This document shows, piece by piece, positions 7,462 to 24,755 of a stretch of DNA of 64,000 bases. The stretch is from Phycisphaerae bacterium (GTDB lineage: Bacteria; Planctomycetota; Phycisphaerae; UBA1845): positions 1,568,001-1,632,000 of the forward strand of contig CAXXGO010000001.1 of NCBI GenBank assembly GCA_963666835.2. The letters run 5' to 3'. The notes below the pieces were generated by a model. It was not told where the DNA came from. It did not search any database and worked only from the letters and a program-made list of their open reading frames with translations. Each line of letters begins with the position of its first letter. Positions within the stretch are counted from its first letter, which is position 1. Both the position numbers and the translations under genes were made by a program.

Positions 7462-8202
7462 TCAGAGATGGTTCACCCAGATGGCGGCCGGAATCGATGC
7501 GATCAGCAGAAACGCCGCTATCACATCCGCACGGGACACAGTTACTTCACGCAGGAAGGTGCGGTGGCGATGGAGACCGAAAGCTCGGCCCTCCATCGAT
7601 AGCGAGAGCGAATGGGCGGTGCGCAGAGCCGATACCAACAGCGGCAAGCAAAGGTGACGCAGGATCAGCCCCCAGCGACGCGGACCCCGGGCGTCGTAGG
7701 CGACCCCACGCACCAACTGGGCCTGATAGACGTTGTGGGCTTCCACGCGGAAGATCGGGGCCAGGCGCAGCGCTGTGACCAGCGTGAACCCCCAACGGTA
7801 GGGCAATCCAGCGCGCATCAGACCGCACGCCAGAGAGACCGGGTCGGTGGTGACCACGAATAGAGTGCTCATCAGCACGACGGCCAGCAGGCGACCTGCC
7901 GCACGGGTACCCGAGGTCAAGCCGGCGTCGGTGGCCGGTCCGAAGACCGGGTTCCCGCCACTGCCGGACAGGGAATGAGTCGCAAAGATTACGAGTCCGA
8001 GGGTCAGCCAAACCCTCTTGCCCGGGATACGCCACGGGGCGACCCCCGCGGTCCACAGCAGCACTATCGCAAGCCCCATGCCGATTAGCGGGGCGGCGGT
8101 CGAACTGGAGGCGAACACGATGATCGTTCCCCATGCAAGCCAACCGAGCTTCACCAGGGGGTGAAGACCGTGGGTGACTGACTTACCGGGCTGATAGTCC
8201 AT
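7462..8202 (-). CDS. ECF transporter T component (EcfT/CbiQ-like)
   Basis: GKSVTHGLHPLVKL start, TM helices, AQLVRG and SMEGRAF conserved Arg motifs. Confidence 0.92.
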   Translation of the reverse strand: MDYQPGKSVTHGLHPLVKLGWLAWGTIIVFASSSTAAPLIGMGLAIVLLWTAGVAPWRIPGKRVWLTLGLVIFATHSLSGSGGNPVFGPATDAGLTSGTRAAGRLLAVVLMSTLFVVTTDPVSLACGLMRAGLPYRWGFTLVTALRLAPIFRVEAHNVYQAQLVRGVAYDARGPRRWGLILRHLCLPLLVSALRTAHSLSLSMEGRAFGLHRHRTFLREVTVSRADVIAAFLLIASIPAAIWVNHL

Positions 8203-8205
8203 CGT

Positions 8206-9765
8206 TTATCCTGAAGCCGTCTCATCCGCAGTCGGATTACTTACCGACGGCGCGTACGCGCCAAATCCCATCTTTCGGAGCTGCTCGAAGGCCGCGTGGA
8301 CCGGTGCGTCGATGATTATGCGCCCGCCGGCTATGAATAGCACGCGCGTACAGGCTCGGACAACGACTCGCGGGTCATGGGTTACGAGCAAGCCTGCGCC
8401 CCATTGCGGCTTGCCGGCATCTTGGTCGCCATTCAAGGCGTCTTGGAGCTTGCCGCCGATCGTATCGAGCATAAGCGTTATATTGCGCGAGTCCTGCCCG
8501 GCGAACGGCTCGTCCATCAGGAGCAGCCGGGGGTGGTGCAGGATTGCCGAGATCAGGTTGAGCCGCCTTTTCTGCCCCCAGCTCAGCCGGTAGGGATGGT
8601 CCTCGCTCCGAGCGGCAAGTCCGGCAGTCTTCAGAAGACGAGCAGCCTCCGGTTCTTCTGCCGTGCCGGGTGGTTTGAGGTTACGCACGGCGAACAGCAA
8701 CTCACTCCAGACGGTGTCGGCCACCAGTTGGTGATCGGCGTTTTGAAACACCATGCCGACACGTTGAGCCAGGCGCGAGACCGCCACGGGGGTGACATCC
8801 ATATCGCACACGCGAATCGAGCCACGGACCGGTTGCACCAGGCCCATCAGGCAACGCAACAGGGTCGATTTCCCGCCGCCGTTGGGACCGAGAAGGGCCA
8901 CGACCTCACCCGGTCGGATAGTAAGGTCGATATCCTGGAGGATCGTGCTTCCGCCTAGTTCAACGGTAGTGTCCGACACTTCAACCAGCGGTTGTGCCGT
9001 GATTTCGACCCGAGTGCTAAGGTCGTTGCCCAGGCGTCCCGGATCCGGGTCCGCCAGGTACGACGGGCATACGTTTGACACGGCATCCCCACGCAGATCG
9101 GTAACGACCTGCCCTTCCTCCAGAACGACCAAACGCGGCTTCAGGGGAAGCAGATGGGCGAGCTTATGTTCTACAATGACCACGGTGAGTTTCTTCTCGC
9201 GGCACAACGCTGCCAGCGTGTGAAACAGGTCGCGGGACGCCTGGGGGTCGAGACTGGCGGTCGGTTCATCGAGAATAAGAGCCTCCGGATGACCCGCAAC
9301 CACCGAAGCGACGGCGACGCGTTGCTGCTCTCCGCCGGACAGCGTGGCCAGCGTCCGCCCGGCAAGGTGGGTGATCGACAGCAGCTCCATTGCTTCCGCG
9401 CGGCGTGCCAGGATCTCGTCCACCGGCAGGCCGCGGTTTTCCAGCCCGAAGGCGACCTCGTCATCGACGGTCAGAGTGGCGAAATGGGCTTCCGGGTTCT
9501 GTTGGACCAGAGCGATACTCTCGGAAACTTGGTGAAGGGGGGTGGTGAGGACATCGTGATCCGCAATGCGGATGCTGCCCTCAGTGTCGCCGGCGTGTCT
9601 TCCCACGAGGAGTCCGCAGGCGGCCAGTGCCAAAGAAGTTTTGCCGGATCCACTAGTGCCGGCGATTGCGACGAACTCTCCGCGGGCAATCTGCAGGGAG
9701 ACTTCGCGCAGCGCCCAGCATTCCGAGCCCTCGAAACGCCATCCGAATCGGTCGAGGTGGATCAT
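8206..9765 (-). CDS. ECF transporter fused double ATPase (A-A')
   Basis: Two Walker A motifs (GTSGSGKT, GPNGGGKST), signatures LSGGEQQR and LSWGQKRR, QNPEAHF..TVDDEVAFGLEN. Confidence 0.95.
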   Translation of the reverse strand: MIHLDRFGWRFEGSECWALREVSLQIARGEFVAIAGTSGSGKTSLALAACGLLVGRHAGDTEGSIRIADHDVLTTPLHQVSESIALVQQNPEAHFATLTVDDEVAFGLENRGLPVDEILARRAEAMELLSITHLAGRTLATLSGGEQQRVAVASVVAGHPEALILDEPTASLDPQASRDLFHTLAALCREKKLTVVIVEHKLAHLLPLKPRLVVLEEGQVVTDLRGDAVSNVCPSYLADPDPGRLGNDLSTRVEITAQPLVEVSDTTVELGGSTILQDIDLTIRPGEVVALLGPNGGGKSTLLRCLMGLVQPVRGSIRVCDMDVTPVAVSRLAQRVGMVFQNADHQLVADTVWSELLFAVRNLKPPGTAEEPEAARLLKTAGLAARSEDHPYRLSWGQKRRLNLISAILHHPRLLLMDEPFAGQDSRNITLMLDTIGGKLQDALNGDQDAGKPQWGAGLLVTHDPRVVVRACTRVLFIAGGRIIIDAPVHAAFEQLRKMGFGAYAPSVSNPTADETASG

Positions 9766-10502
9766 GGCAGCGCCGCAGACTGGATGGAGGACGTTTCCGG
9801 GTCTGGCGAGGGGCTATTCGGTGGGGCATCGGCGCGCGAAGATGCCAGGTAGATTACCGCGATGGTCAGAGCCACCGCCGCCGCGGAATACCCCACATCG
9901 GTCCAGCGGCGGCCGGCGGTCGGTTTAGCCGGGCTCATCCCCAACGTGCCGATTACGCCGGCGGTGTGCAGAGTTCGGAGCAGCCACCACCCGAGCACTC
10001 CGGCCAGCAGAGTCCCGCTGGCGAAGGCAACGAAGGCCAATGTGGTCAGGGCGGTGCTTACCTGCCCTTTCGCATTGAGTGAGGCGGCGCAGGATAGGAC
10101 GAGGACATTACTGGCGGTCCCGGCCCCGCCGGCGAGTATGAACGTCAACACGTGATGACGCCGGGCGAGAAGCAACCACACCAGGTCTACGGTGACGCCC
10201 GCCACCACGCAGTAGGCCATAACGGGCAAGCCGAGGGGACTCCCCGACAGCAGCTCGACCGAGCCCTTAAGTACGCCGGTTATGGTCGCGGCGCCGGGCT
10301 TGCGCACCAGCCCCACGGCCAGCACCAGCCAGAGAACGTGTACGCCCGCCGCCGGTTGCGCGCCTACCGGAATGACGATGACGGAGTGCATCGCGGCGCG
10401 GATATTGCTTACCGCTGCGCCGGACACGCCACCGAGAGCGGCCAGCGCCGCCATGACGAGCAACTCGTGCAAGGAGAAGAACTGACGTGGCGGCTGGCTC
10501 AT
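9762..10502 (-). CDS. ECF transporter S component (YkoE/PF09819-like)
   Basis: About 6-7 TM helices; FSLHELLVMAALAAL and VRKPGAA...ELLSGSPLG pattern; overlaps the ATPase start. Confidence 0.8.
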   Translation of the reverse strand: MSQPPRQFFSLHELLVMAALAALGGVSGAAVSNIRAAMHSVIVIPVGAQPAAGVHVLWLVLAVGLVRKPGAATITGVLKGSVELLSGSPLGLPVMAYCVVAGVTVDLVWLLLARRHHVLTFILAGGAGTASNVLVLSCAASLNAKGQVSTALTTLAFVAFASGTLLAGVLGWWLLRTLHTAGVIGTLGMSPAKPTAGRRWTDVGYSAAAVALTIAVIYLASSRADAPPNSPSPDPETSSIQSAALP

Positions 10503-10517: not shown

Positions 10518-11063
10518 CTATGGCTTTGGCTCAAACGTAATCCGGCTGACGTTTCTAATCCAGTAGTCCCCGGCCTTCTTCGGGGGGATCAACTTGATGG
10601 GACGCTTGGGAGTCTTGTCGGCCAGCCAAACGCCCTCGCCGGTCTGCAGGGCTACGACGGCGTATTCAAGGTCGTCGCGGGTGCACTCTTTCTGGTAACC
10701 GTCCGAAGCTTCGACGATTACGGTCATAGGGCCGGGCTTGATGCCGGCTTCGGCCGTAAGGTGCGCCAGGGCCGGACCGCGCCAGCTTTCGACTCCGTCC
10801 GGACCGTGGGACCTCAACTGCTTGACTTCGTTGAGGTTCACCATCGGCATGCGGGCCATCTCTGCGAAGGTGAAGGACCTGGGGCTGGCAAGTCCCGAGC
10901 CGGCAAGTTCGAGCGTCCAGGTTATCTGAGGGATCTCCATCATTGACTCCGATTGTCCCGCGGTCGTTGAAGCGCCGCCCATCCGAGGCGTTGCGCACCC
11001 AGATAACACCAAAATGCCGATAGATGCAAATCCGATTGCCGGCGTCAGGCCGAACGACTTCAT
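10518..11063 (-). CDS. Lipoprotein with sulfite-oxidase/MsrP-type molybdopterin-binding domain, no obvious Mo-ligating Cys
   Basis: Lipobox LSGC; WTLELAG...FTFAEMARMP...WRGPALAHL...ASDGY...VALQTGE...PIKLIPP...YWIRNVSRI pattern. Confidence 0.75.
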   Translation of the reverse strand: MKSFGLTPAIGFASIGILVLSGCATPRMGGASTTAGQSESMMEIPQITWTLELAGSGLASPRSFTFAEMARMPMVNLNEVKQLRSHGPDGVESWRGPALAHLTAEAGIKPGPMTVIVEASDGYQKECTRDDLEYAVVALQTGEGVWLADKTPKRPIKLIPPKKAGDYWIRNVSRITFEPKP

Positions 11064-11081: not shown

Positions 11082-12254
11082 TTACTCGATTTCGAGAATC
11101 CGGAGCAAGTTAACGTAGTCCAGCAGGTCTACGTCTCCGTCGTAGTCCAGGTCCATCATCAGGCAGTGCTGAGTCGGGTGTCCGAAGTCGGGCCGGGCCC
11201 ACGCCGGCGGATCGCATCCCTCGCCGGCGGGGTCGCAGAGCGGCCCGGTGAGGCACTCGGCGAACCTGGCCAGGTCGCTTCCACTATCGACCTCTCCGTC
11301 GTTGTTGCCATCGCCGCAGATAGCCAGGTCCGCCGAGCTCAGAGTGATGAGCTGGTAGTAATCGTAGCCCGTGTCCGGGTTTGTGTATTGTTCGAACAGG
11401 CCTGTTACCGCGCAGAAGTGCCGTCCTTTCTCAATGAAAGGGTGGTAATCTTCCCAAGAGTCCTTGTCGGCGTTCATGTAGTCGGCGGCCCAGCAATCAT
11501 CCCCGTCGGGCGTCTGCAGGTTGTAGTTGTCGTTCTCTTTGCCCAGGTTCCATTCGGTGATCGTGACATTCCGCACAGTTAAACGCATCGCCTCGAGTGG
11601 TTCGGGGTCGTGATTCTCCACGTACCACTCGTCACCCGGGTATTGCAGAGGTGCCGGGATGCGCGTAACCGGGCATAGAATCGGTGGCGGCAGCGGGTTA
11701 TTTCGGCTGACGATCGTGCATGTGGGACTATTGATGGGGTACCATTGCAGAAACGTGCCTCCCCGATGCTCTTCCACCTCAATGTCCGTAATCGTCACCC
11801 AATCGCCTACGCGGATATTGTCGTACAAACCGGGTCCGCCCGTCCAGTCCTTGGCCTGGATGCCGCCCCAGGCATCCGGATGGCTGGGGTCCTGCAGCAT
11901 AATCCGGGGACGGTATCCCGGGAACTTGCCGATCACGATACCCCCGGCGAAATCGATCAGCTCTCCGTCGTATACGCTGACGTCGCCGTCGAACGTGTTG
12001 GATTGGAGCTCGTAGATCGTGAGGGGATCGGCTGAGACGGCATTGGCCGCCGGAGCCGGGGCCCACAGGGCGGCGGCGACGATCAATGCCGCTCCGATGG
12101 ACGTGAGGTTGCCTTTCCTCCCCGACTCACCAAGGAAGGGGGAGGGGAGGTTTGTCTCCGTTTGCCCGCCCGCCCCTCTTTCCCTCCTCGGCAAAGGGGG
12201 AAGAGTCCCGACCGATCTGTATCGAAACGGCAGTAGCAGCTTCTTTCCGCGCAT
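11082..12254 (-). CDS. Secreted OB-fold-like unit protein with C-terminal dockerin/EF-hand-like Ca-binding module
   Basis: RBS GAGGT; LTIYELQSNT...QDP...WGGIQ..GDWV...EE.RG.T unit; C-terminal GDGNNDGEVD...DLDYDGDVDLLDY. Confidence 0.75.
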   Translation of the reverse strand: MRGKKLLLPFRYRSVGTLPPLPRRERGAGGQTETNLPSPFLGESGRKGNLTSIGAALIVAAALWAPAPAANAVSADPLTIYELQSNTFDGDVSVYDGELIDFAGGIVIGKFPGYRPRIMLQDPSHPDAWGGIQAKDWTGGPGLYDNIRVGDWVTITDIEVEEHRGGTFLQWYPINSPTCTIVSRNNPLPPPILCPVTRIPAPLQYPGDEWYVENHDPEPLEAMRLTVRNVTITEWNLGKENDNYNLQTPDGDDCWAADYMNADKDSWEDYHPFIEKGRHFCAVTGLFEQYTNPDTGYDYYQLITLSSADLAICGDGNNDGEVDSGSDLARFAECLTGPLCDPAGEGCDPPAWARPDFGHPTQHCLMMDLDYDGDVDLLDYVNLLRILEIE

Positions 12255-12392
12255 TCTTTCGTTTACCTCGTCAGCCCGCCTGTTGCGGGAGATTATGAAG
12301 ATCTTTCAGGGGTCGATGCCGCAAGCTCAAGTTTCCGCATGCCACTGATGTGGCACGGTTACCGATTCGTGAACTTGGTCAATAGATCCATA

Positions 12393-13292
12393 CTACGCGA
12401 CGCTCGTTTGCCGGCGGGTGTACAAGACAGTTCCCGCCGTCAGCAGCAACAGTAGCATCACGATAGCCCCCCACGCTGACACGGTGGGGACGCCGTCGCC
12501 GTGCTCTGCAATATCCGCCGCCGATGCCGTGCAAAGCTGATAGTAGTCCCAGTCGGTATCCGGGTTCTTGTACTGTTCGAGCATGCCGGTCACGCTGGCG
12601 AAGCTCGCCCCGGTGACGATACGCGAGTCGTATTCGTTGGGGGGCTCGAGGTCGGCATTCATGTAGTCCGCCGCCCAGAGCAGGTCGCTGTCCTGGCTCA
12701 GTTCGTAGTTATCCGCGGCTTTGCCAAGCCCCATTTGCGCGACGGTGACGTCGCCGACGGTCACGCGCATGGCCTCATAGGGTTCAGCGTCGTGATTCTC
12801 CACGAACCAGCCGCCCGTCTCGTCGTCGTAAACCGGGGCGGGGATCTGGCTTGCCGTCAGGGCGATCGGCGCGGGCAGGGGGTTCCCCTGGCTGACGACC
12901 GTGAAACCGGGAGTGTACGGGGGCTGCCAGTGCAGCATGGTGTTACCCCGATACTCCTCCACGAGCATGTTGGTCAGGCTAACCCAATCTCCGATCTCGA
13001 CATTGTTGTAGAGTTCGTCGTTTGTCCAGTCTTTGACCTGAATTCCTCCCCAGCCGGTCGCATTCGCCGGATCCTGCAGGGCGATGCGATACCGGTAACC
13101 GGGGAACTTGCCGACGACGATTCCTCCGACGCAGTCGATAGTCTGCGTGTCGTAAACGCTGGCATCGCCGTCGGTGGTGTTGGACTGAAGCTCATAGATC
13201 GTAAGCGGGTCGGCCGATGCCGGGGCGGCGCATGCGGCGATTCCCGTCAGCCCCAACATCCCCCAGGCGATTGATCTGCAGATTCCGGACAT
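12393..13292 (-). CDS. Secreted single-unit OB-fold-like protein with IPTL-CTERM tail
   Basis: ATG 13292 after GGAGAGGAG; same unit as its neighbours; C-terminus GVPTVSAWGAIVMLLLLLTAGTVLYTRR. Confidence 0.8.
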   Translation of the reverse strand: MSGICRSIAWGMLGLTGIAACAAPASADPLTIYELQSNTTDGDASVYDTQTIDCVGGIVVGKFPGYRYRIALQDPANATGWGGIQVKDWTNDELYNNVEIGDWVSLTNMLVEEYRGNTMLHWQPPYTPGFTVVSQGNPLPAPIALTASQIPAPVYDDETGGWFVENHDAEPYEAMRVTVGDVTVAQMGLGKAADNYELSQDSDLLWAADYMNADLEPPNEYDSRIVTGASFASVTGMLEQYKNPDTDWDYYQLCTASAADIAEHGDGVPTVSAWGAIVMLLLLLTAGTVLYTRRQTSVA

Positions 13293-13325
13293 GGTCTCCT
13301 CTCCTTCGCTGTAAAGCACGAAACG

Positions 13326-13373
13326 GCCGACCGATCCATCGCCTCCTTTATTGAAGGCGACGAATCGGTCGGC
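13326..13373. other. Intergenic stem-loop within the operon
   Basis: GCCGACCGAT..TCGCCT-loop-AGGCGA..ATCGGTCGGC, no U-tract; possible mRNA stabiliser or processing site. Confidence 0.5.
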
Positions 13374-13405
13374 ACGCTCGCCTTATCTACTCAAGCCGCT
13401 TAATG

Positions 13406-15622
13406 TCAATCGCAATGCACACGGCGGCCATTCCCGAAGTTCACCTTGGCCGCGGTGATAAGCAGCAGGGCCAGGATAGCCAAGCCCCACTCTGATACGG
13501 TCGGGATAGTCCCCATCGACTCGAGGTCGTCGGCCGACCGTGTACACACCTGGTAGTAGTCCCATCCGGCCGACGATTTCGTGTACTGCTCCACAATGCC
13601 CGTAATCCGGGGAAGCAGCGCGTCGGTGTGAATCCGTGGGTCGTACGGACCCCCGGCGTCGGTGTTCATGTAGTCGGTTGCCCAGGCGATGGTGCCGCTG
13701 CGGGTCACTTCGTAGTTGTCATCGGCCTTGCCCAGGTCCATCTGGCCGACGACGACGTTCTGCAGCGTCACGAGCATACTCTCGTAAGGCTCGGTCAGCC
13801 CGTGGTTAGGGGGGTAAACCAAGTCTGCCGGATCCAGCAGTTTGGGCGCCGGGACGGTGTTCCCGCTGCTCTCCACGGTGAAGCTGACGTTCGGGGAGTA
13901 ACTCGTCCGATACTGCAGGAACGTCGTACCGCGGTACTCTTCCACGAAGATGTTCTCGAAGCTGATCCAATCTCCGACGGACACGTTGTTGGAAAGCGCT
14001 CCGCCTTGGCCGTCTTTGACGACGATGGCGCCCCAGGTCGACTGACCCGGATCGCGCAGGTACACGCGGTCGTTGAATCCCTGCCAAACGTGCGTCACTA
14101 CGCCGCCTACGACGTCGACAATCTGATCCGCGTAGGGTGAATCCCCGTTCGGATCCGTGGTGTACTGGATTTCCGCGATGGACAGCGGTGGCGGCACCGG
14201 CACGATGTCGGCGGCCGAGCGGCTGAGTAGTTGATAGTAGTCCCATCCGGAAGACGTCTTGGTGTATTGCTCGACGACTCCGGTGACGCTCTGCAGCTTG
14301 GCTCCGGGGAAGACCCGCGGGTCGTACGGTGCTCCGGCGTCGACGTTCATGTAGTCACTGCCCCACGCCAGATCACTACCCTGGAACAGCTCGTAGTTGT
14401 CTCCCGCCTTGCCCAGATCGATCTGGCCCACGATGGGGCCGACCAGCTTGACTACCATGCTCTCGTACGGCTCACTCGCCGCGTGATCGACCAGCACCGG
14501 GAGGTCCTCTACGCTCAGCTCGGTTACCTCGGGAACCTCGTTACCGGTGCTCTCGATGGTAAAGCTGACGTTCGGAGAGAAACTCGTTCGATACTGCAGG
14601 AACGTGGTCCCCCGGTACTCCTCCGCCAGGATGTTCTCGAAGCTGACCCAGTCTCCGACGGATACATTGTTGGAAAGCGCTCCGCCCTCGCCGTCTTTCA
14701 CGACGATTGCGCCCCAGGTGGGCTGGGCCGGATCGCGCAGGTACACACGGTCGTTGAACCCGTGCCAGATATGAGTCACCACGCCGCCCACAACGTCGAT
14801 GATCTGATCCGCATAGGGCGAGTCCCCGGCCGGGTCCGTGGTGTACTGGATGTCGTAGATGGACAGCGGCGCCGGTACCGGCACGATGTCGGCGGCCGCA
14901 CGGCTGAGCAACTGGTAGTAATCCCATCCGGAGGACGTGTTGGTGTACTGCTCGACGATTCCGGTGATGCTCTGCAGCTTGGCCCCGGGGAAGATCCGCG
15001 GGTCATACGGAGCTCCGGCGTCGACATTCATGTAGTCACTGCCCCACGCAAGATCACTACCCTGGAACAGCTCGTAGTTGTCCTCGGCCTTACCCAAATC
15101 GATCTGGCCCACGATGGGGCCGACCAGCTTGACGATCATGCTCTCGTACGGCTCACTCGCCGCGTGATCGACCGGCACCGGGAGGTCTTCAACACTGAGC
15201 TCGGTTACTTCGGGAACCTCGTTACCGGTGCTCTCGACGGTAAACGCGACGGCCGGGGCGTTCGCGCGATCGAACTGCAGGAAGGTTGTCCCCTTGCTTT
15301 CTTCGATCAGGATGGCGTCGAAGCTGACCCAGTCGCCGATTTCGACTCCGGCGATCAAATCACCTTCGGAGTCCTTGACGCAGATGGCTCCCCAGGTCGG
15401 TTGGGTGGGATCCTGCAAGTACACCCGGTCTCGAAAGCCCGACCACTTGTGAATCACGACGCCGCCGGTCACGTCGTGGATCTGTCCGTCGTAACTCGAT
15501 GCATCTCCGTCGGTGGTGTTGGATTGGATTTCGTAGATTGACAGCTCTGCCGCTTCCCCGACGCCCGCCCAACTAGCCGCGGCTGCCAGAGCCAAGGCGA
15601 ACATCAGACAGTCCCGTTTCAT
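13406..15622 (-). CDS. Secreted three-unit OB-fold-like protein with IPTL-CTERM tail
   Basis: Signal peptide; three ~227-aa units; C-terminus TIPTVSEWGLAILALLLITAAK...RR. Confidence 0.85.
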   Translation of the reverse strand: MKRDCLMFALALAAAASWAGVGEAAELSIYEIQSNTTDGDASSYDGQIHDVTGGVVIHKWSGFRDRVYLQDPTQPTWGAICVKDSEGDLIAGVEIGDWVSFDAILIEESKGTTFLQFDRANAPAVAFTVESTGNEVPEVTELSVEDLPVPVDHAASEPYESMIVKLVGPIVGQIDLGKAEDNYELFQGSDLAWGSDYMNVDAGAPYDPRIFPGAKLQSITGIVEQYTNTSSGWDYYQLLSRAAADIVPVPAPLSIYDIQYTTDPAGDSPYADQIIDVVGGVVTHIWHGFNDRVYLRDPAQPTWGAIVVKDGEGGALSNNVSVGDWVSFENILAEEYRGTTFLQYRTSFSPNVSFTIESTGNEVPEVTELSVEDLPVLVDHAASEPYESMVVKLVGPIVGQIDLGKAGDNYELFQGSDLAWGSDYMNVDAGAPYDPRVFPGAKLQSVTGVVEQYTKTSSGWDYYQLLSRSAADIVPVPPPLSIAEIQYTTDPNGDSPYADQIVDVVGGVVTHVWQGFNDRVYLRDPGQSTWGAIVVKDGQGGALSNNVSVGDWISFENIFVEEYRGTTFLQYRTSYSPNVSFTVESSGNTVPAPKLLDPADLVYPPNHGLTEPYESMLVTLQNVVVGQMDLGKADDNYEVTRSGTIAWATDYMNTDAGGPYDPRIHTDALLPRITGIVEQYTKSSAGWDYYQVCTRSADDLESMGTIPTVSEWGLAILALLLITAAKVNFGNGRRVHCD
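13870..15240. repeat. Tandem 681-bp intragenic duplication
   Basis: Matching anchors 681 nt apart: AAGCTGACGTTCGG at 13881/14562 and GGGAACCTCGTTACCGG at 14531/15212. Confidence 0.9.
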
Positions 15623-15695
15623 AGCTACCCTCCGTACTCAGCGTGTTTCTCGCGATGGTCGACCGAGCCTACTCGGACGACATACTCGCGTAGGT

Positions 15696-16598
15696 TCATC
15701 TCTTCTTCCGCGTTCGTCGCGTGGCGTCGTCTGCGACCTTGATTTCTTCAGGTGCCGGGTAGGGATACCAGTTGATATCATCCCGCGGCGGAAGTTCCTG
15801 ATCCGCGTCCCATTCATCCTTCCAGACGCGGGTGCGCAATTCCGTGTGGCCGTCGGCATACAAGAGGTTACCCCCAAGCCCGGATTGCCCTTGGCGGTGC
15901 CGGGCGGAGAACGACTTGGGATAACTTCCGCTGTGCTTACCCGCGCCTCGGTAGGTGATCTTCCCGTCAAAACCCTTGCGCGGATCCAGCAACTGATCGA
16001 ACATTACGATGGTTCGCTGTGGGCATGTGATTCTCGCGGAATCCAGAAACGACGGCATCGGGTAGCCCAGGCTATCCGGAGGAGGCCACGCATTCCGATC
16101 CAGCTCCAGACACGAGTTCATCGAGTAGCTGAAGTAGCCGTCCCGCTCCGGGCGATAGCTGTATACCTCGCGTCCGCCAATCGGCACTGCGGAAGGACAC
16201 TGGAAGAACGTGCTGTCGTCCGGACGCTCGAATCGCGGATGGTCTCGCCAAGCGGGCAGATCCAGCATGGGAGGAAGAACGTCCGCCCAGCCGTGCCAAT
16301 CGGCCACGTCTTCTTCGCTGACACGCGGATGGTCCAATGCCCGCGGGCCTCGATCAAGCCCGTCGCAGTGCGGATAATACCCTGCGTTCTCGGCTGCGTA
16401 GCACGTGAACGCGACGCCCCATTGCTTCATGCGAGAAGCACATACCACCTGCTTGGCCTGGGCTCTGGCGGCACTTAGCGACGGCGACAGAATGGCCAAC
16501 AACAGCGCCACAATCGCTATGACCACGAGCAGCTCGATCAGCGAGAAACCTGCCCTTGGGTGCAATTCGGCCTTAAACCGTTGTGTTTTGTGGAGCAT
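15696..16598 (-). CDS. Prepilin-type N-terminal cleavage / H-X9-DG (DUF1559, SBP_bac_10-like) protein
   Basis: GFSLIELLVVIAIVALLLAILSPSLSAARAQAKQVVCAS and RH...GGNLLYADGH. Start is probably ATG 16598 or TTG 16565 rather than 16706. Confidence 0.88.
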   Translation of the reverse strand: MLHKTQRFKAELHPRAGFSLIELLVVIAIVALLLAILSPSLSAARAQAKQVVCASRMKQWGVAFTCYAAENAGYYPHCDGLDRGPRALDHPRVSEEDVADWHGWADVLPPMLDLPAWRDHPRFERPDDSTFFQCPSAVPIGGREVYSYRPERDGYFSYSMNSCLELDRNAWPPPDSLGYPMPSFLDSARITCPQRTIVMFDQLLDPRKGFDGKITYRGAGKHSGSYPKSFSARHRQGQSGLGGNLLYADGHTELRTRVWKDEWDADQELPPRDDINWYPYPAPEEIKVADDATRRTRKKR

Positions 16599-16602
16599 AT
16601 CG
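16579..16602. promoter_or_regulatory. Putative ModE-family operator
   Basis: CGTTGT-GTTTTGTGGAGC-ATATCG: two mismatches to CGTTAT-N12-ATAACG, at the 5' end of the ECF operon. Confidence 0.55.
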
Positions 16603-16780
16603 CGATGCAAAAAAAAAGACAACCACTCGCAAACACCCGCCGCGCCAGGCGATGGACCAACCTGCGTCTTTTTCCTGGCGCAAACGATCCGGGAATAGTG
16701 TATCATAGCGTCCGATAGGGCGGCAATAGGGTTTCTTTGGTTTTTTGGGACCCGCCCAAGCGATTCTCAGGGTCTGCGCC

Positions 16781-17299
16781 GTGGGCATCACGATCGTCTC
16801 AGCCGGCAAGGGTGAAGGTAAGACCACGTTCCTGTGTGAGAGCGCGGCTCGGCTAGCGGCGCTGGGGCGAACGGTGGGTGGGATCGCCTCACCCGCAGTG
16901 TTCGAGGATGACCGCCGGGTCGGGTATGACCTCTTGGACCTGAGGGCGGGCAACCGCAGACGGCTTGCCCAGGTCGCGAAATCCTCGACGGCCACTAATA
17001 CTGTAGGAATGTATCGTCTAGGGGACGCGGCCGTGACCGAGGGGAACATCAGCATCATCTCGGCCGTGCGGGACCGCCTGGACGTCGTCATTCTCGATGA
17101 GGTCGGCCCGCTGGAGTTTCGGGGGGGCGGCTGGGCGCCTGCTTTGGAGGTCGCGCTGCGGGAATGTTCGCCGGGGCAGGAGCTGATTATCGTGGTTCGG
17201 CCGTCGCTTGTGGATGAACTGCCCAAGCGCTTTCCGTCCGACATGTGGGCCTCTGCCGAGCGGATCTCTCCACCCTGGCCTGCCTCGCTGTGGCGGTGA
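16781..17299 (+). CDS. P-loop NTPase (NTPase_1/DUF2478-like)
   Basis: AGKGEGKTT, VGGIASP, RVGYDLLDL, VVILDEVGPLEFRGGGW. Start is uncertain (GTG 16781 or TTG 16745). Confidence 0.82.
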   Translation: MGITIVSAGKGEGKTTFLCESAARLAALGRTVGGIASPAVFEDDRRVGYDLLDLRAGNRRRLAQVAKSSTATNTVGMYRLGDAAVTEGNISIISAVRDRLDVVILDEVGPLEFRGGGWAPALEVALRECSPGQELIIVVRPSLVDELPKRFPSDMWASAERISPPWPASLWR

Positions 17300-17447
17300 C
17301 CAAAGCCGGCTATGCCGTTCTTATTACGCCCCTTCTCATAGAGTGAGCGGGTTCCTTCATTTGACGCTACGGCCTCAAGCCGGGAAGCTGTGGGCGAACA
17401 AGTGCGCTCAAGCCGCGGTGGCTCGAGCCCGGTTCGCGGAGGAGCAA

Positions 17448-17891
17448 GTGACCAGAAACCACCCCGGTCCCCGTAGGCCTCAGACGCATTCCGAAGACGA
17501 GCCCGAAAACAAGGGCTGGGAGGGACGTTTGCGCCTTTGGGTCGCGGTCAATGGGCACAATGCCCTCGGGCCCGGCAAGGTTCGATTGCTCGAAGCGATA
17601 GCCAGGACCAGTTCATTGTCGGCGGCCGCAAAGGACCTGCGGATGAGCTACCGATTGGCGTGGCAGCACCTGCGAGTGATTGAGGAACGAACGGGTTTAA
17701 CGGTCGTGGAGCCCCAGCGCGGCGGCCCGAGCGGGGGCGGCACCGATCTAACGCCGGAGGGTCGGGCGCTGCTCAAGGCGTACGACAGTTTCCGGCGGGA
17801 GGTCGAGGAGTTCATGGACTCGGCCTGCGCCCGACACTTCTCGGCGTGGGCGCCGCCACCGGGCGGAGAGTCCGACTCTGACTCAGAGTAG
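17448..17891 (+). CDS. ModE-family winged-helix regulator (N-terminal domain only, no TOBE domains)
   Basis: GTG after GGAGGAG; LGPGKVRLLEAIARTSSLSAAAKDLRMSYRLAW...QRGGPSGGGTDLTPEG. Confidence 0.9.
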   Translation: MTRNHPGPRRPQTHSEDEPENKGWEGRLRLWVAVNGHNALGPGKVRLLEAIARTSSLSAAAKDLRMSYRLAWQHLRVIEERTGLTVVEPQRGGPSGGGTDLTPEGRALLKAYDSFRREVEEFMDSACARHFSAWAPPPGGESDSDSE

Positions 17892-17902
17892 TAGACGAAG
17901 CG

Positions 17903-18556
17903 CTACGCGGACGCACCGGAAGAGGAACCGGCTATTGCTGCGCGCAGACGTGCGACCATTGCCGGTGGCGGTGGGGCTGTTGCCAAGTCGGCCAGCCACG
18001 TGAAACGCGGGCGAAGCGTGGGATACTCGCGTACGAGCCGGTCGGCCTCGGTTGCCGCCAGGCTGGTCGGCGCATTGATGAGCAAGTCCGAGACGAGCGG
18101 CAGAACGGTCTCGGTACTCGGCTTCATTTCCTTTGGCGGGGGGCGGACGATCAAAATGACGGCAACGGGTCGCAGCAGCCGCACAGCGCTGGAACTCTCG
18201 ACGATGATCGGTGTGTCTATGGGGAAGAGGTCGAGGGCGTGTTGCAGCCCAGGGTCGAGTCCGGCACCCTCGTGCCGGAGGATCTCGACCTGTTTCGCCC
18301 CGGCTTGCAGGTATTGCTCCGTATCCATGCCCACCCGGTCGAGATCGGCGGAATCCTCCATGAAGTACCGCCCGGCGCCGGCTTGATCTGCAGGCGTTCT
18401 TGCGTCGTGGCGTCTGTGAAGAGGGCGGACCTTCAGGCATCCCAGACCTCCCCCGAGGCAGCGGAGCAGCCGCGTCACGAAGACGGTCTTTCCAGAACCG
18501 GAGTGCGGTCCGATGACCGAGAGAATCGTTCTGCTCGTCGCGGCAGATCCGCCCAT
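17903..18556 (-). CDS. MobB-like P-loop protein
   Basis: ILSVIGPHSGSGKTVFVTRLL, DTEQYLQAGA, IIVES; immediately downstream of fdhD. Confidence 0.6.
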   Translation of the reverse strand: MGGSAATSRTILSVIGPHSGSGKTVFVTRLLRCLGGGLGCLKVRPLHRRHDARTPADQAGAGRYFMEDSADLDRVGMDTEQYLQAGAKQVEILRHEGAGLDPGLQHALDLFPIDTPIIVESSSAVRLLRPVAVILIVRPPPKEMKPSTETVLPLVSDLLINAPTSLAATEADRLVREYPTLRPRFTWLADLATAPPPPAMVARLRAAIAGSSSGASA

Positions 18557-18557
18557 C

Positions 18558-19406
18558 TCAGTCCACCACCCGCTGGTATCCGGTATAGATATTCATCCGG
18601 CGACCACGAAGGAAGCCGACCACGGTGAGCCCGAAACGGCGAGCCCACTCCACCCCCATCGCAGTCGGCGCGGACGACGACGCGAGGATGGGGACGCCGT
18701 GGGCAACGGCCTTGCCGATGATCTCGGCCGAGACCCGACCGCTGGTGAGCGCGATCTTGTCTGACAGATCCAGCTTGCGTTGCACGGCCATTCCGGCCAC
18801 TTTATCGAAGGCGTTGTGGCGGCCGACATCTTCAGCGGTAAAAAGGAGACTTTCGGTGTCGGCAATGCCGCAGGCGTGTACCCCGCCGGTCAGGCGGTAA
18901 AGGGAGCTGGCGCGGCCGAACTCTCGCCCCCGAGCGGCAAGTTGCTCCGCAGAGATTGTGACGGGGTTGTCCAAAGGGCGGCAATCAGCCAGGCGGGACG
19001 GGTCACGGCCGGTCCCGCCGCCGCCGCATCCTGTTCCAAACGTCCACCTCCGATGGATTGCCTCCATGGCGTCATCGTCGAACAGCCCGGTGCATCTGAC
19101 TTGCCCGCTCTCGGTGTCGAAGCACACTTCCGGCATCTCCCGGCGGTCTCGGCACAGGCCCTCGGATATCAGGAATCCCAGAGCCAACGCCTCGACATCG
19201 CGCGGAAGCGCCAGCATAGCGAGAATAGGTGTATCGTTGACGACCAGCTCGATTCTGCGCTCCCGAATAAGCCGGTCGTTTACGGCCGTGCATTCTCCGG
19301 AGGGTGAATACCGGCGAATCGGCCATGCGATCATCTGATCTGCGTCGGCGGCATCGTTTGGTGGCGGTCCATCCACGTTTTCTTCGAGATGCTCGTTCTC
19401 TGTCAT
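18558..19406 (-). CDS. fdhD: Formate dehydrogenase accessory sulfurtransferase FdhD
   Basis: LALGFLISEG, TGCG, TGGVHAC, EDVGRHNAFDKVAG, SGRVSAEI, SAPT, LTVVGFLRG. Confidence 0.95.
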   Translation of the reverse strand: MTENEHLEENVDGPPPNDAADADQMIAWPIRRYSPSGECTAVNDRLIRERRIELVVNDTPILAMLALPRDVEALALGFLISEGLCRDRREMPEVCFDTESGQVRCTGLFDDDAMEAIHRRWTFGTGCGGGGTGRDPSRLADCRPLDNPVTISAEQLAARGREFGRASSLYRLTGGVHACGIADTESLLFTAEDVGRHNAFDKVAGMAVQRKLDLSDKIALTSGRVSAEIIGKAVAHGVPILASSSAPTAMGVEWARRFGLTVVGFLRGRRMNIYTGYQRVVD

Positions 19407-20094: not shown

Positions 20095-23000
20095 ATGCTA
20101 TTGACACGCAGAGAATTCCTTAAGACTTCTGCGGTTACCGCCGGGGTCGCCGTCACCGGGATGGGCTTTGCGCTCAGTCCGGTGAAAGCGCACGCGGCGG
20201 AACTCCGCAAGAATCTCGAGGAGGCTACGCAAACGACGACTATATGCCCGTATTGCGGTTGCGGGTGTGGGTTTGTCGTGCACGCCTCGGGCGGCAAGGT
20301 CATCAACATCGAGGGCGATTCCGAGCACCCCATCAATCAGGGTACGGCATGCTCGAAGGGGTCCGCGTTGTTCCAGATGGCCGGTGGAAACAACGAGAAC
20401 CGTTTGCAGACGGTGCGCTACCGTGCACCGAATGCAACCGAGTGGGAGGAAGTGAGTTGGGAGTGGGCGGTGGAGCGTATCGCACAGCGGGTCAAGGAAA
20501 CTCGCGACGCGACGTTCGAGACGGTCAACGCTGCCGGCAATACGGTCAACCGCACGCTGGCGATCGGTTCGTTGGGTAGTGCCGCTCTCGATAACGAGGA
20601 GTGCTGGCTCTATCAGAAGATGTTGCGTGCCCTCGGCCTGGTGTACATCGAACACCAGGCGCGGAACTGACACTCTGCCACAGTCTCCAGTTTGGCGACT
20701 TCGTTCGGCAGAGGGGCCATGACTAACCACTGGATCGACATCGGCAACAGCGATGTCATCCTGATCATGGGATCCAACGCAGCAGAGAACCATCCGATCT
20801 CGATGCGTTGGGTGAACAAGGCTCGCGAGAGCGGGGCCAAGATGATCCACGTCGACCCCCGGTTCACCAGAACTTCGGCGGTTGCGGACATCTATGCATC
20901 GCTTAGAAGCGGGTCCGACATTGCGTTCTTGGGTGGGATGATCAATTACATCCTTGAGAACGGGTATATTCACGAGGAGTACGTCAAGGAATATACGAAC
21001 GCCAGTTTCCTGATTAATGAGGATTTCGCGTTTAACGACGGGTTGTTCAGCGGCCACGACGGCGATAGGACCTACGATACGACGACGTGGGCTTTCCAGA
21101 CGGACGCCGACGGGGTTATTGTCAAGGACAAGACCCTTGAGGATCCCAACTGCGTTTACCAGTTCCTCAAGACGCATTATTCTCGCTACGACCTGGAGAC
21201 CGTATCAGGCATCACCGGTACTCCCGAGGACAAGCTTCAAGAGGTCTACGAGGCCTACGTTGGCGCGTGCTACGAACCGGGTAAAGCCGGAACGATCATG
21301 TACGCGATGGGCTGGACCCAGCACACGGTCGGTGCTCAGAACATCCGGGCAATGTCGATCGCCCAGTTGTTGTTGGGCAACATCGGCGTGTCGGGCGGCG
21401 GAGTCAACGCTTTGCGCGGTGAGTCCAATGTGCAGGGCTCCACGGACCAATGTCTGCTGTACCATATTCTGCCGGGTTACCTCAAGAGTCCGCAGGACAA
21501 CTGGACGGATCTGGACACATATAACGAGTCGGCGCGGGCGCTTACGACGCTCGAACCGCGCAGCGCCAACTGGTGGAGTCATACGCCGGAGTATATAGCC
21601 AGCTTCCTAAAGGCCATGTACGGCACCGAGGCTACGGCGGACAACGACTTCGCGTATAGTTGGCTGCCGAAGCGCGATGCCGGGGTCAATTATGCGTGGC
21701 AGCCGATGTTCGATGCCATGTACAAGCAGGAGGAGGGGAAGGAGATTAAGGGCTTCTTCGCCTGGGGGCAGAACCCCGCCTGCAGCAGCGGTAACGTCAA
21801 CAAGATCCGGGCCGCCTTGGCCAAGCTGGACTGGTTGGTGTGCGTCAACATCTACAGCACCGAAACCTCGGAGTTCTGGCGCGGGCCTGACATGGACCCG
21901 GAGAACATCGCTACTGAGGTGTTCGAGCTGCCCGCAGCCGCGTCGTTCGAGAAGGAAGGCAGCGTCACCAACTCGGGCCGGTGGGCTCAGTGGCGCTATG
22001 CGGCGATTGACCCTCCGGGCGATGCGAAGCCGGACGCGGAGATTATGAACGATCTGTGGATCGCCATCACCGGGCTCTACGAGGCGGACGGTGAATTCCC
22101 CGATCCGATTCTCGGCTGCAAGTGGGATTACTTTGACGGGCCGGACATCCCAACCGTCATGCTTGCCAAGGAAATCAACGGGTACAACCTTGACGCGGAC
22201 GGCAATCCCACCGGACTGGTTGACAAGTTCACCTTGCTGGCGAGTGACGGGACGACGTCTTCGGGTAACTGGCTCTACTGCCAGTCGTACAACGAAGACG
22301 GCAACAACATGGCTCGGCGCACTGTGGAGACCGAGGGTATCGGTTTGAACGCCGAGTGGGCGTGGTGCTGGCCGATCAATCGCCGGATCATCTACAACCG
22401 CGCCAGCGTCGATTTGCTGGGGCAGCCGTACGATGAGGATCACCCGGTCATTACCTGGAACGGAACCGGCTGGGACGGTGATGTTCCGGACGGTGGTTGG
22501 GCTCCGATGAACAACGAGGACGGGACGGAGAATCCGGATTCGAAGTTGCCCTTCATTATGCAGACCAACGGGGTAGCGCAGGTCTTCGGTAATATGACGG
22601 ATGGTCCGGTCCCCGAGCACTATGAACCGCTGGAGTCGCCGTTGACGGAAAACCCGATGACGGGCAACTCGCAGCGGTTGAATCCGGCAGTATACGTGCC
22701 TCCGGCCGACGAGATGAACGCGGTAGCCACGCCGGGAGGTACGGACTACCCGATCATCTGTTCGACGTACCGGGTGACCGAGCACTGGCAGAGCGGGGTG
22801 ATGACGCGGTGGATACCCTGGTTGAACGAGCTTCATCCGGACATGTTTGTCGAGATGTCGGAAGAGCTTGCTGAAGAGAAGAGCATCACCAACGGTGAAT
22901 GGGTCAAGGTGAGTAGTGCTCGCGGTGAGGTTCGGGCGGTGGCTGTCGTTACGAAGCGCTTCAAACCGTTCACTATCGAGGGCAATACGGTTCATCAAGT

Positions 23001-23151
23001 CGGAATACCGTGGTGTTACGGCTGGGTTGCACCGCTGATGGACAAGACTCGGGCGAGTAGCGCCAATCTATTGAGTCCGAACGTCGGCGATCCGAATACC
23101 CGAATTCCGGAAAGCAAGGCCTTTATGGTCAATATTGAGAAGGAGGCTTAG
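20095..23151 (+). CDS. fdnG: Selenocysteine-containing formate dehydrogenase alpha subunit (FdnG/FdhA type), Tat-exported, ~1018 aa
   Basis: The two tracked ORFs are in one frame joined by TGA 20668-20670 in EHQARN-U-HSATVSSLATSFGRGAMTNHW; TRREFLK Tat motif; CPYCGCGC...C Fe-S motif. Confidence 0.96.
20671..20714 (+). promoter_or_regulatory. Bacterial SECIS element
   Basis: Directly after the UGA: CTCTGCC...AGTC-T-CCA-GTT-TGG-C-GACT...GGCAGAG stem-loop. Confidence 0.8.
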
Positions 23152-23154
23152 ACC

Positions 23155-23826
23155 ATGGCAGTCAACGGAAAAGCATTCTTGATCGACACGACCAAGTGTA
23201 CTGCTTGCCGGGCCTGCCAGGTGGCCTGCAAGCAGTGGAACGAGTTGGCGGCGGAGACGACCGAGAACCGCGGCGGCTACGAAAACCCGCCGGATTTCAC
23301 GGCTAACACGTGGCTGCGTGTGCAATTCAAAGAGACCGAGCGTTCGGATGGTTCACTGGCGTGGACGTTCGTTCGGAGCTCGTGCCGGCATTGCATCGAT
23401 GCTCCGTGTAAGCAGGAAGCTGCCAATAGCGATTCGATCACTATTGATAGTGACACCGGAGCGGTGCTCTTCGGCGAGGGTACGAAGGACGAATCCTACG
23501 CGGCAATCCGAACGGCGTGCCCGTTCGACATTCCGCGGCAGGATTCCGAAGGGCAGCTCTTCAAGTGTCGGATGTGCGTGGATCGGGTGGACAACGAGGA
23601 TCTGGAGGCAGCCGCTGACAGAATCCCGGCCTGTGCCAAGGTCTGTACGACCGGGGCAATCACGTTTGGCGATTACGCGGACATAACCGCGGCGGCGGAC
23701 GCCCGGCTGGCTGAAGTCATTGCCGAGGGGTTCACCAACGCCACGATTCTGGATCGAAATGACGTGCGGCTGCTTATCTTGTTGGCCGAGCCGGCCGGCA
23801 TGTATTCGCTGACTACGCGTGGATGA
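23155..23826 (+). CDS. Formate dehydrogenase iron-sulfur (beta) subunit, soluble three-cluster type
   Basis: CTACRACQVACKQWN, CRHC..APC, ACPF, KCRMC..PACAKVC; one Cys group incomplete; no TM anchor. Confidence 0.92.
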   Translation: MAVNGKAFLIDTTKCTACRACQVACKQWNELAAETTENRGGYENPPDFTANTWLRVQFKETERSDGSLAWTFVRSSCRHCIDAPCKQEAANSDSITIDSDTGAVLFGEGTKDESYAAIRTACPFDIPRQDSEGQLFKCRMCVDRVDNEDLEAAADRIPACAKVCTTGAITFGDYADITAAADARLAEVIAEGFTNATILDRNDVRLLILLAEPAGMYSLTTRG

Positions 23827-24755
23827 TGTACGGGATGAGTAAGTCTGCATCATTAGGTATGAAAGACCGCCCGTCGGTAGAGACGCTTGAGCGCCGGGCC
23901 AAGGCTATACTCAAAGCCCGCCCCGCCTACAAGGAAATGGTCGATTTCTATTTGACCGTTTTCCGTAAGCAGTTGGAGTGGCGGGACCGGCTGACGGTTC
24001 GGCCCGAGGCGGTAACCCCGGAGCAGGTACGAGACTGCCTGTCCGGTGGGGCGCCCCTGGCCGAGAGTTACGATCCGGGGATCGCGAAGGAGTCTCTCGT
24101 CGAGTTCTGGCGGGAGATGAAGTCCGTATTCGGTCGCGGGAACGAGACTCTGCAGGCGGCGGTCACGCAGATCGACGGTGCTGAGCAAGCCGGCGAGTTC
24201 AAACCGGGGGCTTGGTTGTTGCGACAGCGCCCGGATTGTCCGGAGCTTCTTTCGGACACCGCGCGCGAGCTCGGCGTTGCTGAGCCCATCTTGGCCTCGT
24301 TGACCAGGGCGGTGGTCTTTCCGCACTGGCAGGTTGTGGCCGAGAGCTGGCTTCCGGACGATCGCCTTGATTACTGGCGGAAGTTCCGGTGTCCGGTCTG
24401 TGGAGGCGCTCCGGAGTTGGCGGAGACCTGCACGGAGGCCAGCACTTCCGAATGTGTTTCCGCGGCGGTTCGGCGTTTGATGCACTGCGCGTTCTGCAGT
24501 GCCCGTTGGGCGGTTCCGGTGCTGGAGTGTCCCTCCTGCGGGTCTACGCAATCAGGTGATGCCAAGTATCTGTTTACGTCTGACGAGCCGGAGTTGCGGA
24601 TAGATTTTTGTAAGAGTTGCAGCCACTACGTTAAGGTGGTTGACGGTGACAAGGTTGGTGGGCGGATCTACGTGGGGCTCGAGCTGCTGGCCGCGGCTCA
24701 TCTCGATATGATTGCCCAGGAGAAGAACCTTTCGCCGCTGCAAGTGTGTGCGTGA
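23823..24755 (+). CDS. fdhE: Formate dehydrogenase maturation protein FdhE
   Basis: CPVCG, CAFC..RW, CPSCG, CKSCSHYVK, HLDMIAQE motifs. Confidence 0.9.
   Translation: MMYGMSKSASLGMKDRPSVETLERRAKAILKARPAYKEMVDFYLTVFRKQLEWRDRLTVRPEAVTPEQVRDCLSGGAPLAESYDPGIAKESLVEFWREMKSVFGRGNETLQAAVTQIDGAEQAGEFKPGAWLLRQRPDCPELLSDTARELGVAEPILASLTRAVVFPHWQVVAESWLPDDRLDYWRKFRCPVCGGAPELAETCTEASTSECVSAAVRRLMHCAFCSARWAVPVLECPSCGSTQSGDAKYLFTSDEPELRIDFCKSCSHYVKVVDGDKVGGRIYVGLELLAAAHLDMIAQEKNLSPLQVCA

Follow-up and report, generated by a model that had tools for sequence, protein, structure and literature searches.

The reverse-strand gene at 10518..11063 encodes a Cys-less lipoprotein with a sulfite oxidase fold, which probably binds a molybdopterin-type cofactor outside the inner membrane and feeds a co-encoded ECF importer in a cell that lacks the biosynthetic pathway. 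With less confidence, we lean toward the narrower reading that the protein serves as capture subunit in a bacterial importer dedicated to the intact Mo/W cofactor. We infer both the binding of the cofactor by the lipoprotein and its direct hand-over to the S component. The gene lies within the window, the whole stretch of 64,000 nucleotides that was analysed. An initial annotation had proposed a periplasmic protein, lacking the catalytic Cys, that would capture Moco or a pterin for the ECF system. That proposal is supported by the auxotrophy of the genomes that carry the lipoprotein, by the Moco riboswitch on homologous operons, and by the fusion of S to a like domain.

Fold, export signal and conserved residues of the lipoprotein

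The 181-residue product begins with MK, followed by a hydrophobic stretch and the lipobox L-S-G-C23, and its domain spans approximately residues 44–181. No twin Arg was found within the first 35 residues, in agreement with the initial claim of a Sec lipobox and no Tat signal. When 55 full-length homologues were scanned with regular expressions, the lipobox pattern was present in 38 and the Tat pattern in none. Extracytoplasmic molybdoenzymes of the sulfite oxidase family are generally exported by Tat. PF00174 matched the lipoprotein at 30.1 bits (cut-off 24), and this was the sole PF00174 match across the source genome (G000). With 74 homologues as input, AlphaFold gave a model of pLDDT 87, which was compared with known structures over residues ~45–180, giving Z scores of 17.4 for SoxC, 16.6 for SorA, 14.5 for PruR and 12.6 for YedY/MsrP. 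With SorT, nitrate reductase and sulfite oxidase included, the scores ranged from 12.3 to 17.4, and the next fold scored 6.3. A PDB sequence search with the lipoprotein as single query gave nothing significant (best E 0.7). The initial annotation had called for a structural comparison with MsrP and had considered a fold unrelated to Oxidored_molyb; the fold is shared with MsrP, and the unrelated fold does not hold against the PF00174 and structure matches.

The absence of the catalytic Cys, also claimed at the outset, is borne out by the alignments. The segment ahead of W94-R-G, EVKQLRSHGPDGVES, is free of Cys. In a 50-sequence profile, position 83 of the lipoprotein is where SorA and SoxC have their catalytic Cys, and MAFFT placed the Cys of Cys-bearing relatives at the same position; neither position 83 nor position 84 is Cys. 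Homologues were gathered with a 4-sequence profile, which yielded 81 proteins, including 77 with E < 1e-24 (the lone query recovered only itself, 1 of 131 candidates). The family alignment (n = 74) comprised the query and 73 proteins, with a query duplicate, three fragments and four weak matches omitted; those homologues that carry names come from Phycisphaerae/Planctomycetota. Position 83 is L, Q, R or E, and Cys is absent there in these 74 close homologues and in 80 distant ones. Within positions 74–95, a Cys occurs in one of the 74 (at 93) and in none of the 80.

The conserved motifs are K/R84-S/T85-H86-x-x-D89, W94-x-G96, D121-G-Y123, W146, R/K157, P161 and W168. Both S/T85 and W168 are present in all 74 sequences, D121 in 73, W146 in 72, D89 in 71, H86 in 69, Y123 in 68 (with F in five), R/K157 in 67 and K/R84 in 59. 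Position 170, where a Lys would follow the last Trp, is not conserved; we take this Lys to correspond to the Moco-phosphate ligand of sulfite oxidases.

A protein that is still a molybdoenzyme, in which C127 or S85 binds the metal, would fit the PF00174 score above cut-off, the invariance of S/T85 and the label 'molybdopterin-dependent oxidoreductase', which databases attach to the homologues. However, C127, the KECT Cys that the initial annotation had considered as an occupant of the Mo site, is Cys in just 30 of the 74 close homologues and I, V or M in all 80 distant ones; SorA has a Leu at the aligned position, and C127 sits in strand E124–128 of the model. C127 is therefore not the Mo site. 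Position 85 is Ser in some homologues and Thr in others, and the minimal domain of 140 residues comes with neither a Tat signal nor a redox-partner gene, which makes retained catalysis extremely improbable.

A search of the whole library with the lipoprotein family gave 1103 matches at E ≤ 1e-3; lipoproteins or S-layer proteins in which the domain is repeated 2–10 times make up many of these. P0084, P0108, P0111, P0121 and others are large lipoproteins or S-layer proteins carrying up to 10 copies. As far as can be judged from sequence, this repeated-domain architecture suggests ligand capture rather than catalysis.

The ECF operon, its neighbours and distant homologous loci

The cluster runs on the reverse strand in the order pilin-like protein, three secreted DUF5689/OB-like proteins, lipoprotein, S, A-A and T. 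As first annotated, the lipoprotein gene is directly upstream of the S component, which starts 15 nt downstream. The neighbouring module is a group I ECF system, with S, T and ATPase genes co-encoded and a six-helix S fold: the S component (PF09819/YkoE fold) at 9762..10502, the double ATPase (an A-A fusion) at 8206..9765, which overlaps S by 4 nt, and, after a 3-nt gap, the CbiQ-family T component at 7462..8202. On the other side of the lipoprotein gene are a secreted protein with a DUF5689/OB-like module (11082..12254; co-conserved upstream of the lipoprotein and S, with the family lead coming from a paralogue), a second such protein with an IPTL-CTERM-like tail (12393..13319), and a third with repeated modules and the same kind of tail (13406..15622). 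The prepilin-type N-methyl protein that heads the cluster (15696..16706) likely starts near 16598. The pilin-like and secreted proteins (11082–16706, reverse strand) are candidates for outer-surface capture or an outer-membrane-crossing step. They also accompany S in four genomes without the lipoprotein (G123, G124, G039 and G014).

Several genes beyond the cluster relate to molybdenum enzymes. FdhD sulfurtransferase is encoded at 18558..19406 and a weakly matching MobB-like protein at 17903..18556, both on the reverse strand. On the forward strand, the FdnG-type formate dehydrogenase alpha subunit (20095..23151) has a Tat signal and a lone in-frame TGA at codon 192, and is a client for the cofactor; the FDH beta subunit and an FdhE-like chaperone follow (23155..24755, both below cut-off). 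A forward-strand ORF at 17208..17891 contains a ModE-like repressor domain in residues 120–205 (TIGR00637, E 1e-22, below cut-off), and its true start is probably downstream. The NTPase_1/DUF2478 gene (16745..17299, forward strand) is a recurrent neighbour of the system, both in close relatives and in 3 loci among the best 80 of 186 distant ones; its product possibly has a role in cofactor salvage.

An Rfam scan detected no riboswitch within the window, RF01055 included, and none in six close-relative loci. Conservation in the aligned upstream DNA of five loci was limited to a T-run and the start-codon region, and no ModE box was established from that alignment. Promoter and terminator predictions at the locus were at chance level.

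Metagenomes were also scanned with a more distant lipoprotein subfamily, and the best 80 of 186 loci were analyzed, many of them near-alike and many short. Among these 80, T was present in 45, ATPase in 39 and S in 23. The S proteins matched the window-type S profile at E 1e-48 to 1e-60. The RF01055 Moco riboswitch immediately precedes S in 14 of the 23 S loci (60–83 bits, cut-off 36), and several of the riboswitch-less ones end close to the S start. In 21 of the 23, the S protein carries a fused sulfite-oxidase-like domain (E ≤ 1e-4); the remaining two comprise one fusion at 1e-3 and one split arrangement. The fused domain is degenerate, and PF00174 matched only one of the four tested, at E 0.009.

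The operon at L101 contains, in order, the riboswitch, the S fusion, A-A, T, a CxxCH protein, a phosphatase-like gene (4850–5989, presumably a phosphatase-like lipoprotein by motif), the lipoprotein and a second small lipoprotein. Some ECF operons of close and distant lineages encode such a CxxCH-motif, membrane-anchored protein with a degenerate sulfite-oxidase-like domain (hhalign 92%; L007:6424–7302, L011:2771–3622, L012:8981–9850 and L101:3930–4853). One might speculate that it keeps the cofactor reduced. Two cofactor-related operons stand in tandem at L101 and nine other distant loci, where a cobalamin riboswitch (L101:7030–7167) follows the Moco-riboswitch operon and precedes a secreted repeat protein.

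The S model superimposes on YkoE (5EDL) with a TM score of 0.81. YkoE binds thiamine through Y46, W49, E77, Q95 and D131, as given in the sections available of that study (PMC5037267). Four of these five ligands are changed in the S family: W49 is replaced by an invariant His, Y46 by Ala (Gly in one), Q95 by Ala or Gly, and D131 mostly by Lys. Thiamine appears unlikely as the cargo of S because E77 alone of the five is kept. The window's own S has SPLG where the family has NPHG.

These changes bear on the proposal that the lipoprotein binds a small non-Moco pterin, a folate or a thiamine-type vitamin that the ECF system imports, much as PruR and YkoF bind such ligands. Its attractions are the fold match to PruR, the YkoE-like S and the short pocket of PruR, which in the accessible text of that work suits small pterins better than Moco (PMC11194511). 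Against it, four of the five thiamine ligands in S have changed, the riboswitch of the homologous loci is the Moco motif, and the lipoprotein lacks both the PW motif of PruR and a DcpA-type neighbour. The distribution of the system, moreover, tracks moaC loss together with Mo enzymes, and a plain pterin cannot substitute for the products of moaACDE. We consider a cargo of this kind quite improbable.

Probable cofactor auxotrophy and distribution among related genomes

The source genome is 92% complete, in seven contigs without N. No match to MoaC, MoeA_N, Mob_synth_C, MoaE or ModA was found in it. Searches by tblastn with a relative's MoaC, MoeA, MoaE and MoaD returned nothing at 1e-4, and MoaA gave radical-SAM matches at 26–33% only. 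TupA was not found either, the single PBP_like_2 match being PstS, and the two top SBP_bac_11 matches had no NCBIfam match, ModA included. The one PF00994 match was not counted as MogA/MoaB; it directly precedes an ORF that we take to resemble the CinA C-terminal domain. The same genome has an intact selenocysteine formate dehydrogenase, tRNA-Sec, FdhD, an AOR-like gene and a MobA-like gene (below cut-off).

Across the order, 243 genomes at least 80% complete were surveyed. The lipoprotein is present in 20. Its carriers lack moaC in 16 of 20 cases versus 66 of the 223 other genomes; put the other way, moaC is found in 161 of the 243, comprising 4 of the 20 carriers (one match weak) and 157 others. 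For S carriers the corresponding figures are 23 of 30 without moaC versus 59 of the 213 genomes that lack S. Every lipoprotein carrier (20/20) has FdhD, AOR or XDH. Of the 20 carriers, 4 have MoaE and 14 have MoeA, compared with 9 and 12, respectively, of 13 moaC-positive congeners; moeA is kept in 10 of the 16 moaC-less carriers.

Among all genomes without moaC (n = 82), 75 were searched for all three markers (FdhD, AOR and XDH) and seven for FdhD only. The lipoprotein or S is present in 24 of the 39 that have a Mo/W-enzyme marker and in none of the 36 that do not. Four of the seven were FdhD positive, and two of those four have S. Fisher P values for the order-wide associations range from 1e-5 to 1e-9, values that are overstated since the genomes are related MAGs. 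Contrasts within genera agree with the order-wide pattern. In genus g62, the two carriers both lack moaC and the three non-carriers all have it; in g21, a single-contig carrier lacks moaC and a non-carrier has it; of seven moaC-less g91 genomes, the carrier alone has Mo enzymes.

These counts weigh on the idea that the lipoprotein is the binding protein of a molybdate or tungstate uptake system. The nearby ModE-like gene and the lack of a detected ModA or TupA in the source genome would suit it, conserved K/R84-S/T85 could hold an anion, and Moco riboswitches also control oxyanion transporters. The metal alone, however, is useless without moaA, moaC and moaE, and the source genome is without moeA as well. 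Most prototrophs, which need the oxyanion, do not have the system (154 of the 213 S-less genomes have moaC). An oxyanion ligand is very improbable.

S immediately follows the lipoprotein gene in 18 of 21 loci. The S profile matched 30 of the 243 genomes, 17 of them lipoprotein carriers and 13 not, and in three of the 20 carriers (G104, G111 and G122) the lipoprotein gene stands by itself and no PF09819 S was found. The lipoprotein is an accessory to the S system and not an obligatory part of it, because 13 of 30 S genomes do without the lipoprotein and 3 of 20 carriers without a detectable S. Three of the S-only loci are associated with molybdoenzyme genes: S is directly before an XDH subunit in G073, closes an XDH cluster in G018, and is near an FDH gene in G039. 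The S gene adjoining the xanthine-dehydrogenase-type clusters of G073 and G018 is more divergent (L086:12249–12872; L084/L085; L094), and no T or ATPase gene was seen near it in the stretches fetched. Both genomes are without moaC, moaE and moeA. In G079 and G080, S is fused to the double ATPase (L087:2139–4325; L088:1–1746).

Such a patchy pairing raises the alternative that the lipoprotein stores, shields or extracts Moco in the periplasm without ever contacting S, whatever the uptake route, the cofactor coming from donor proteins or an outer-membrane step. The three carriers with no S are moaC-less and have Mo enzymes, as this alternative would allow; the 13 S-bearing genomes without the lipoprotein, and the tandem repeats of related domains in large lipoproteins and S-layer proteins, point the same way. 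It accounts less readily for the gene order in the 18 loci and for the fusion of a like domain to S in 21 of the 23 S loci among the best 80 of 186 distant ones. We judge it unlikely.

Other observations tell against the reading that we prefer, in which the lipoprotein captures the cofactor for the importer. Four of the 20 carriers keep moaC, and 17 moaC-less genomes with markers have neither the lipoprotein nor S. The fused domain of distant S is degenerate, position 170 is unconserved, the window's own S has SPLG, and no riboswitch was found in the window or in six close-relative loci. Divergent versions were sought in the 17 genomes, yielding no PF09819 match and two weak PF00174-like ones. 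In five of the 17, moaE and moeA are both present, and these assemblies are probably incomplete. Also among the 17 are the five genomes of family f3 (G038, G056, G128, G129 and G130), which lack moaC, S and the lipoprotein and have Mo-enzyme markers; moaE and moeA are also missing in all three of its genomes that were tested, and this family possibly uses another uptake route.

Proposed mechanism and comparison with known systems

We propose that the old cofactor cleft would hold the pterin ring between Y123 and W168, with D121, in the manner of Y104, W160 and N102 of PruR; this mapping is by motif, not superposition. Binding to the lipoprotein would shield the labile cofactor, which could then pass to S, whose YkoE-like pocket appears remodelled. 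Inside the cell, the MobA-like protein, FdhD and FdhE would mature it for formate dehydrogenase. The cargo may be metal-loaded Moco or Wco, or MPT. The source genome would need the metal-loaded form because neither MoeA nor a molybdate/tungstate binding protein was found there; the moaC-less carriers with moeA (10 of 16) could reload MPT. The presence of MoaE in just 4 of the 20 carriers argues against cPMP, and cPMP was rejected as cargo, moaE being missing in 14 of the 16 moaC-less carriers.

A literature search, chiefly of open-access sources, found no description of a bacterial Moco or MPT importer. One survey, in the portion available, lists 305 bacteria that have molybdoenzymes and no complete pathway, for which incomplete sequencing could be the cause (PMC6147048). 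With this locus, bacterial Moco uptake becomes directly testable, since it points to a specific transporter, a predicted cargo and a small soluble protein as the candidate binder. If the preferred reading is correct, many anaerobes would be Moco auxotrophs living on cofactor made by their neighbours, and Moco would be exchanged between organisms as a vitamin, much as B12 is; the protein catching it would be a disarmed version of the very enzyme domain that normally uses it. Moco would then join the cross-fed cofactors of anaerobic communities, and orphan molybdoenzymes would be explained. In that case the system may also aid the culturing of these uncultured Planctomycetota, and it would offer a 140-residue carrier for a labile cofactor.

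The closest known counterpart is PruR, a Cys-less sulfite oxidase fold that binds pterins according to the available sections of two reports (PMC11194511, PMC13259868). Like the lipoprotein, PruR (Agrobacterium Atu3496; PDB 7KOU, 7KOS, 7KOM, 7KP2, 7RKB) is a small, exported, non-catalytic SUOX fold; 122 residues align at Z 14.5, and the Tyr/Trp pair is apparently kept. As described there, PruR is a soluble protein of the periplasm in which a PW motif occupies the Cys site; its ligands are small pterins, and it signals to DcpA/DTB sensors. The lipoprotein, in contrast, carries a lipid anchor and lacks the PW motif, and its gene accompanies that of an ECF importer in cofactor auxotrophs. The PW-motif site reads K-Q-L83-R-S-H in the lipoprotein, with no W among the common residues at positions 81–86. 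By motif, the PruR contacts N102, Y104 and W160 may correspond to D121 (73/74), Y123 (68/74) and W168 (74/74). No operon with a DcpA/DTB sensor was seen, the gene after the lipoprotein being the ECF S in 18 of 21 loci. On sequence grounds, the lipoprotein appears to work like PruR; it does not belong with PruR because the PW motif and the DcpA/DTB partner are missing.

The enzymes of the sulfite oxidase family (SoxC, SorA, SorT and MsrP/YedY; PF00174) share the fold (Z 12–17, rmsd 2.2–2.7 Å) and the W-x-G, DG[YF] and P-x-R-L motifs; unlike them, the lipoprotein has no catalytic Cys, Tat signal, extra domain or redox partner. The thiamine system YkoEDC(+YkoF), also a group I ECF transporter, has the same S fold, a dedicated S-AA-T operon and an optional extra binding protein. 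Riboswitch control is common to YkoEDC and the distant homologous loci, by a THI box in the former and a Moco riboswitch in the latter. The accessory protein of YkoEDC has a different fold from the lipoprotein, and four of the five thiamine ligands are altered in S. C. elegans likewise takes its cofactor from another organism, by uptake of protein-bound Moco; that system belongs to a eukaryote, and the part of the report available names no transporter (PMC7849362). The initial idea of an enzyme fold repurposed as a binding protein is thus supported here but is not new, since PruR is a precedent in the text available (PMC11194511). A Cys-less sulfite oxidase fold acting as a pterin binder was already known; what is likely new is the cargo and the job of the protein.
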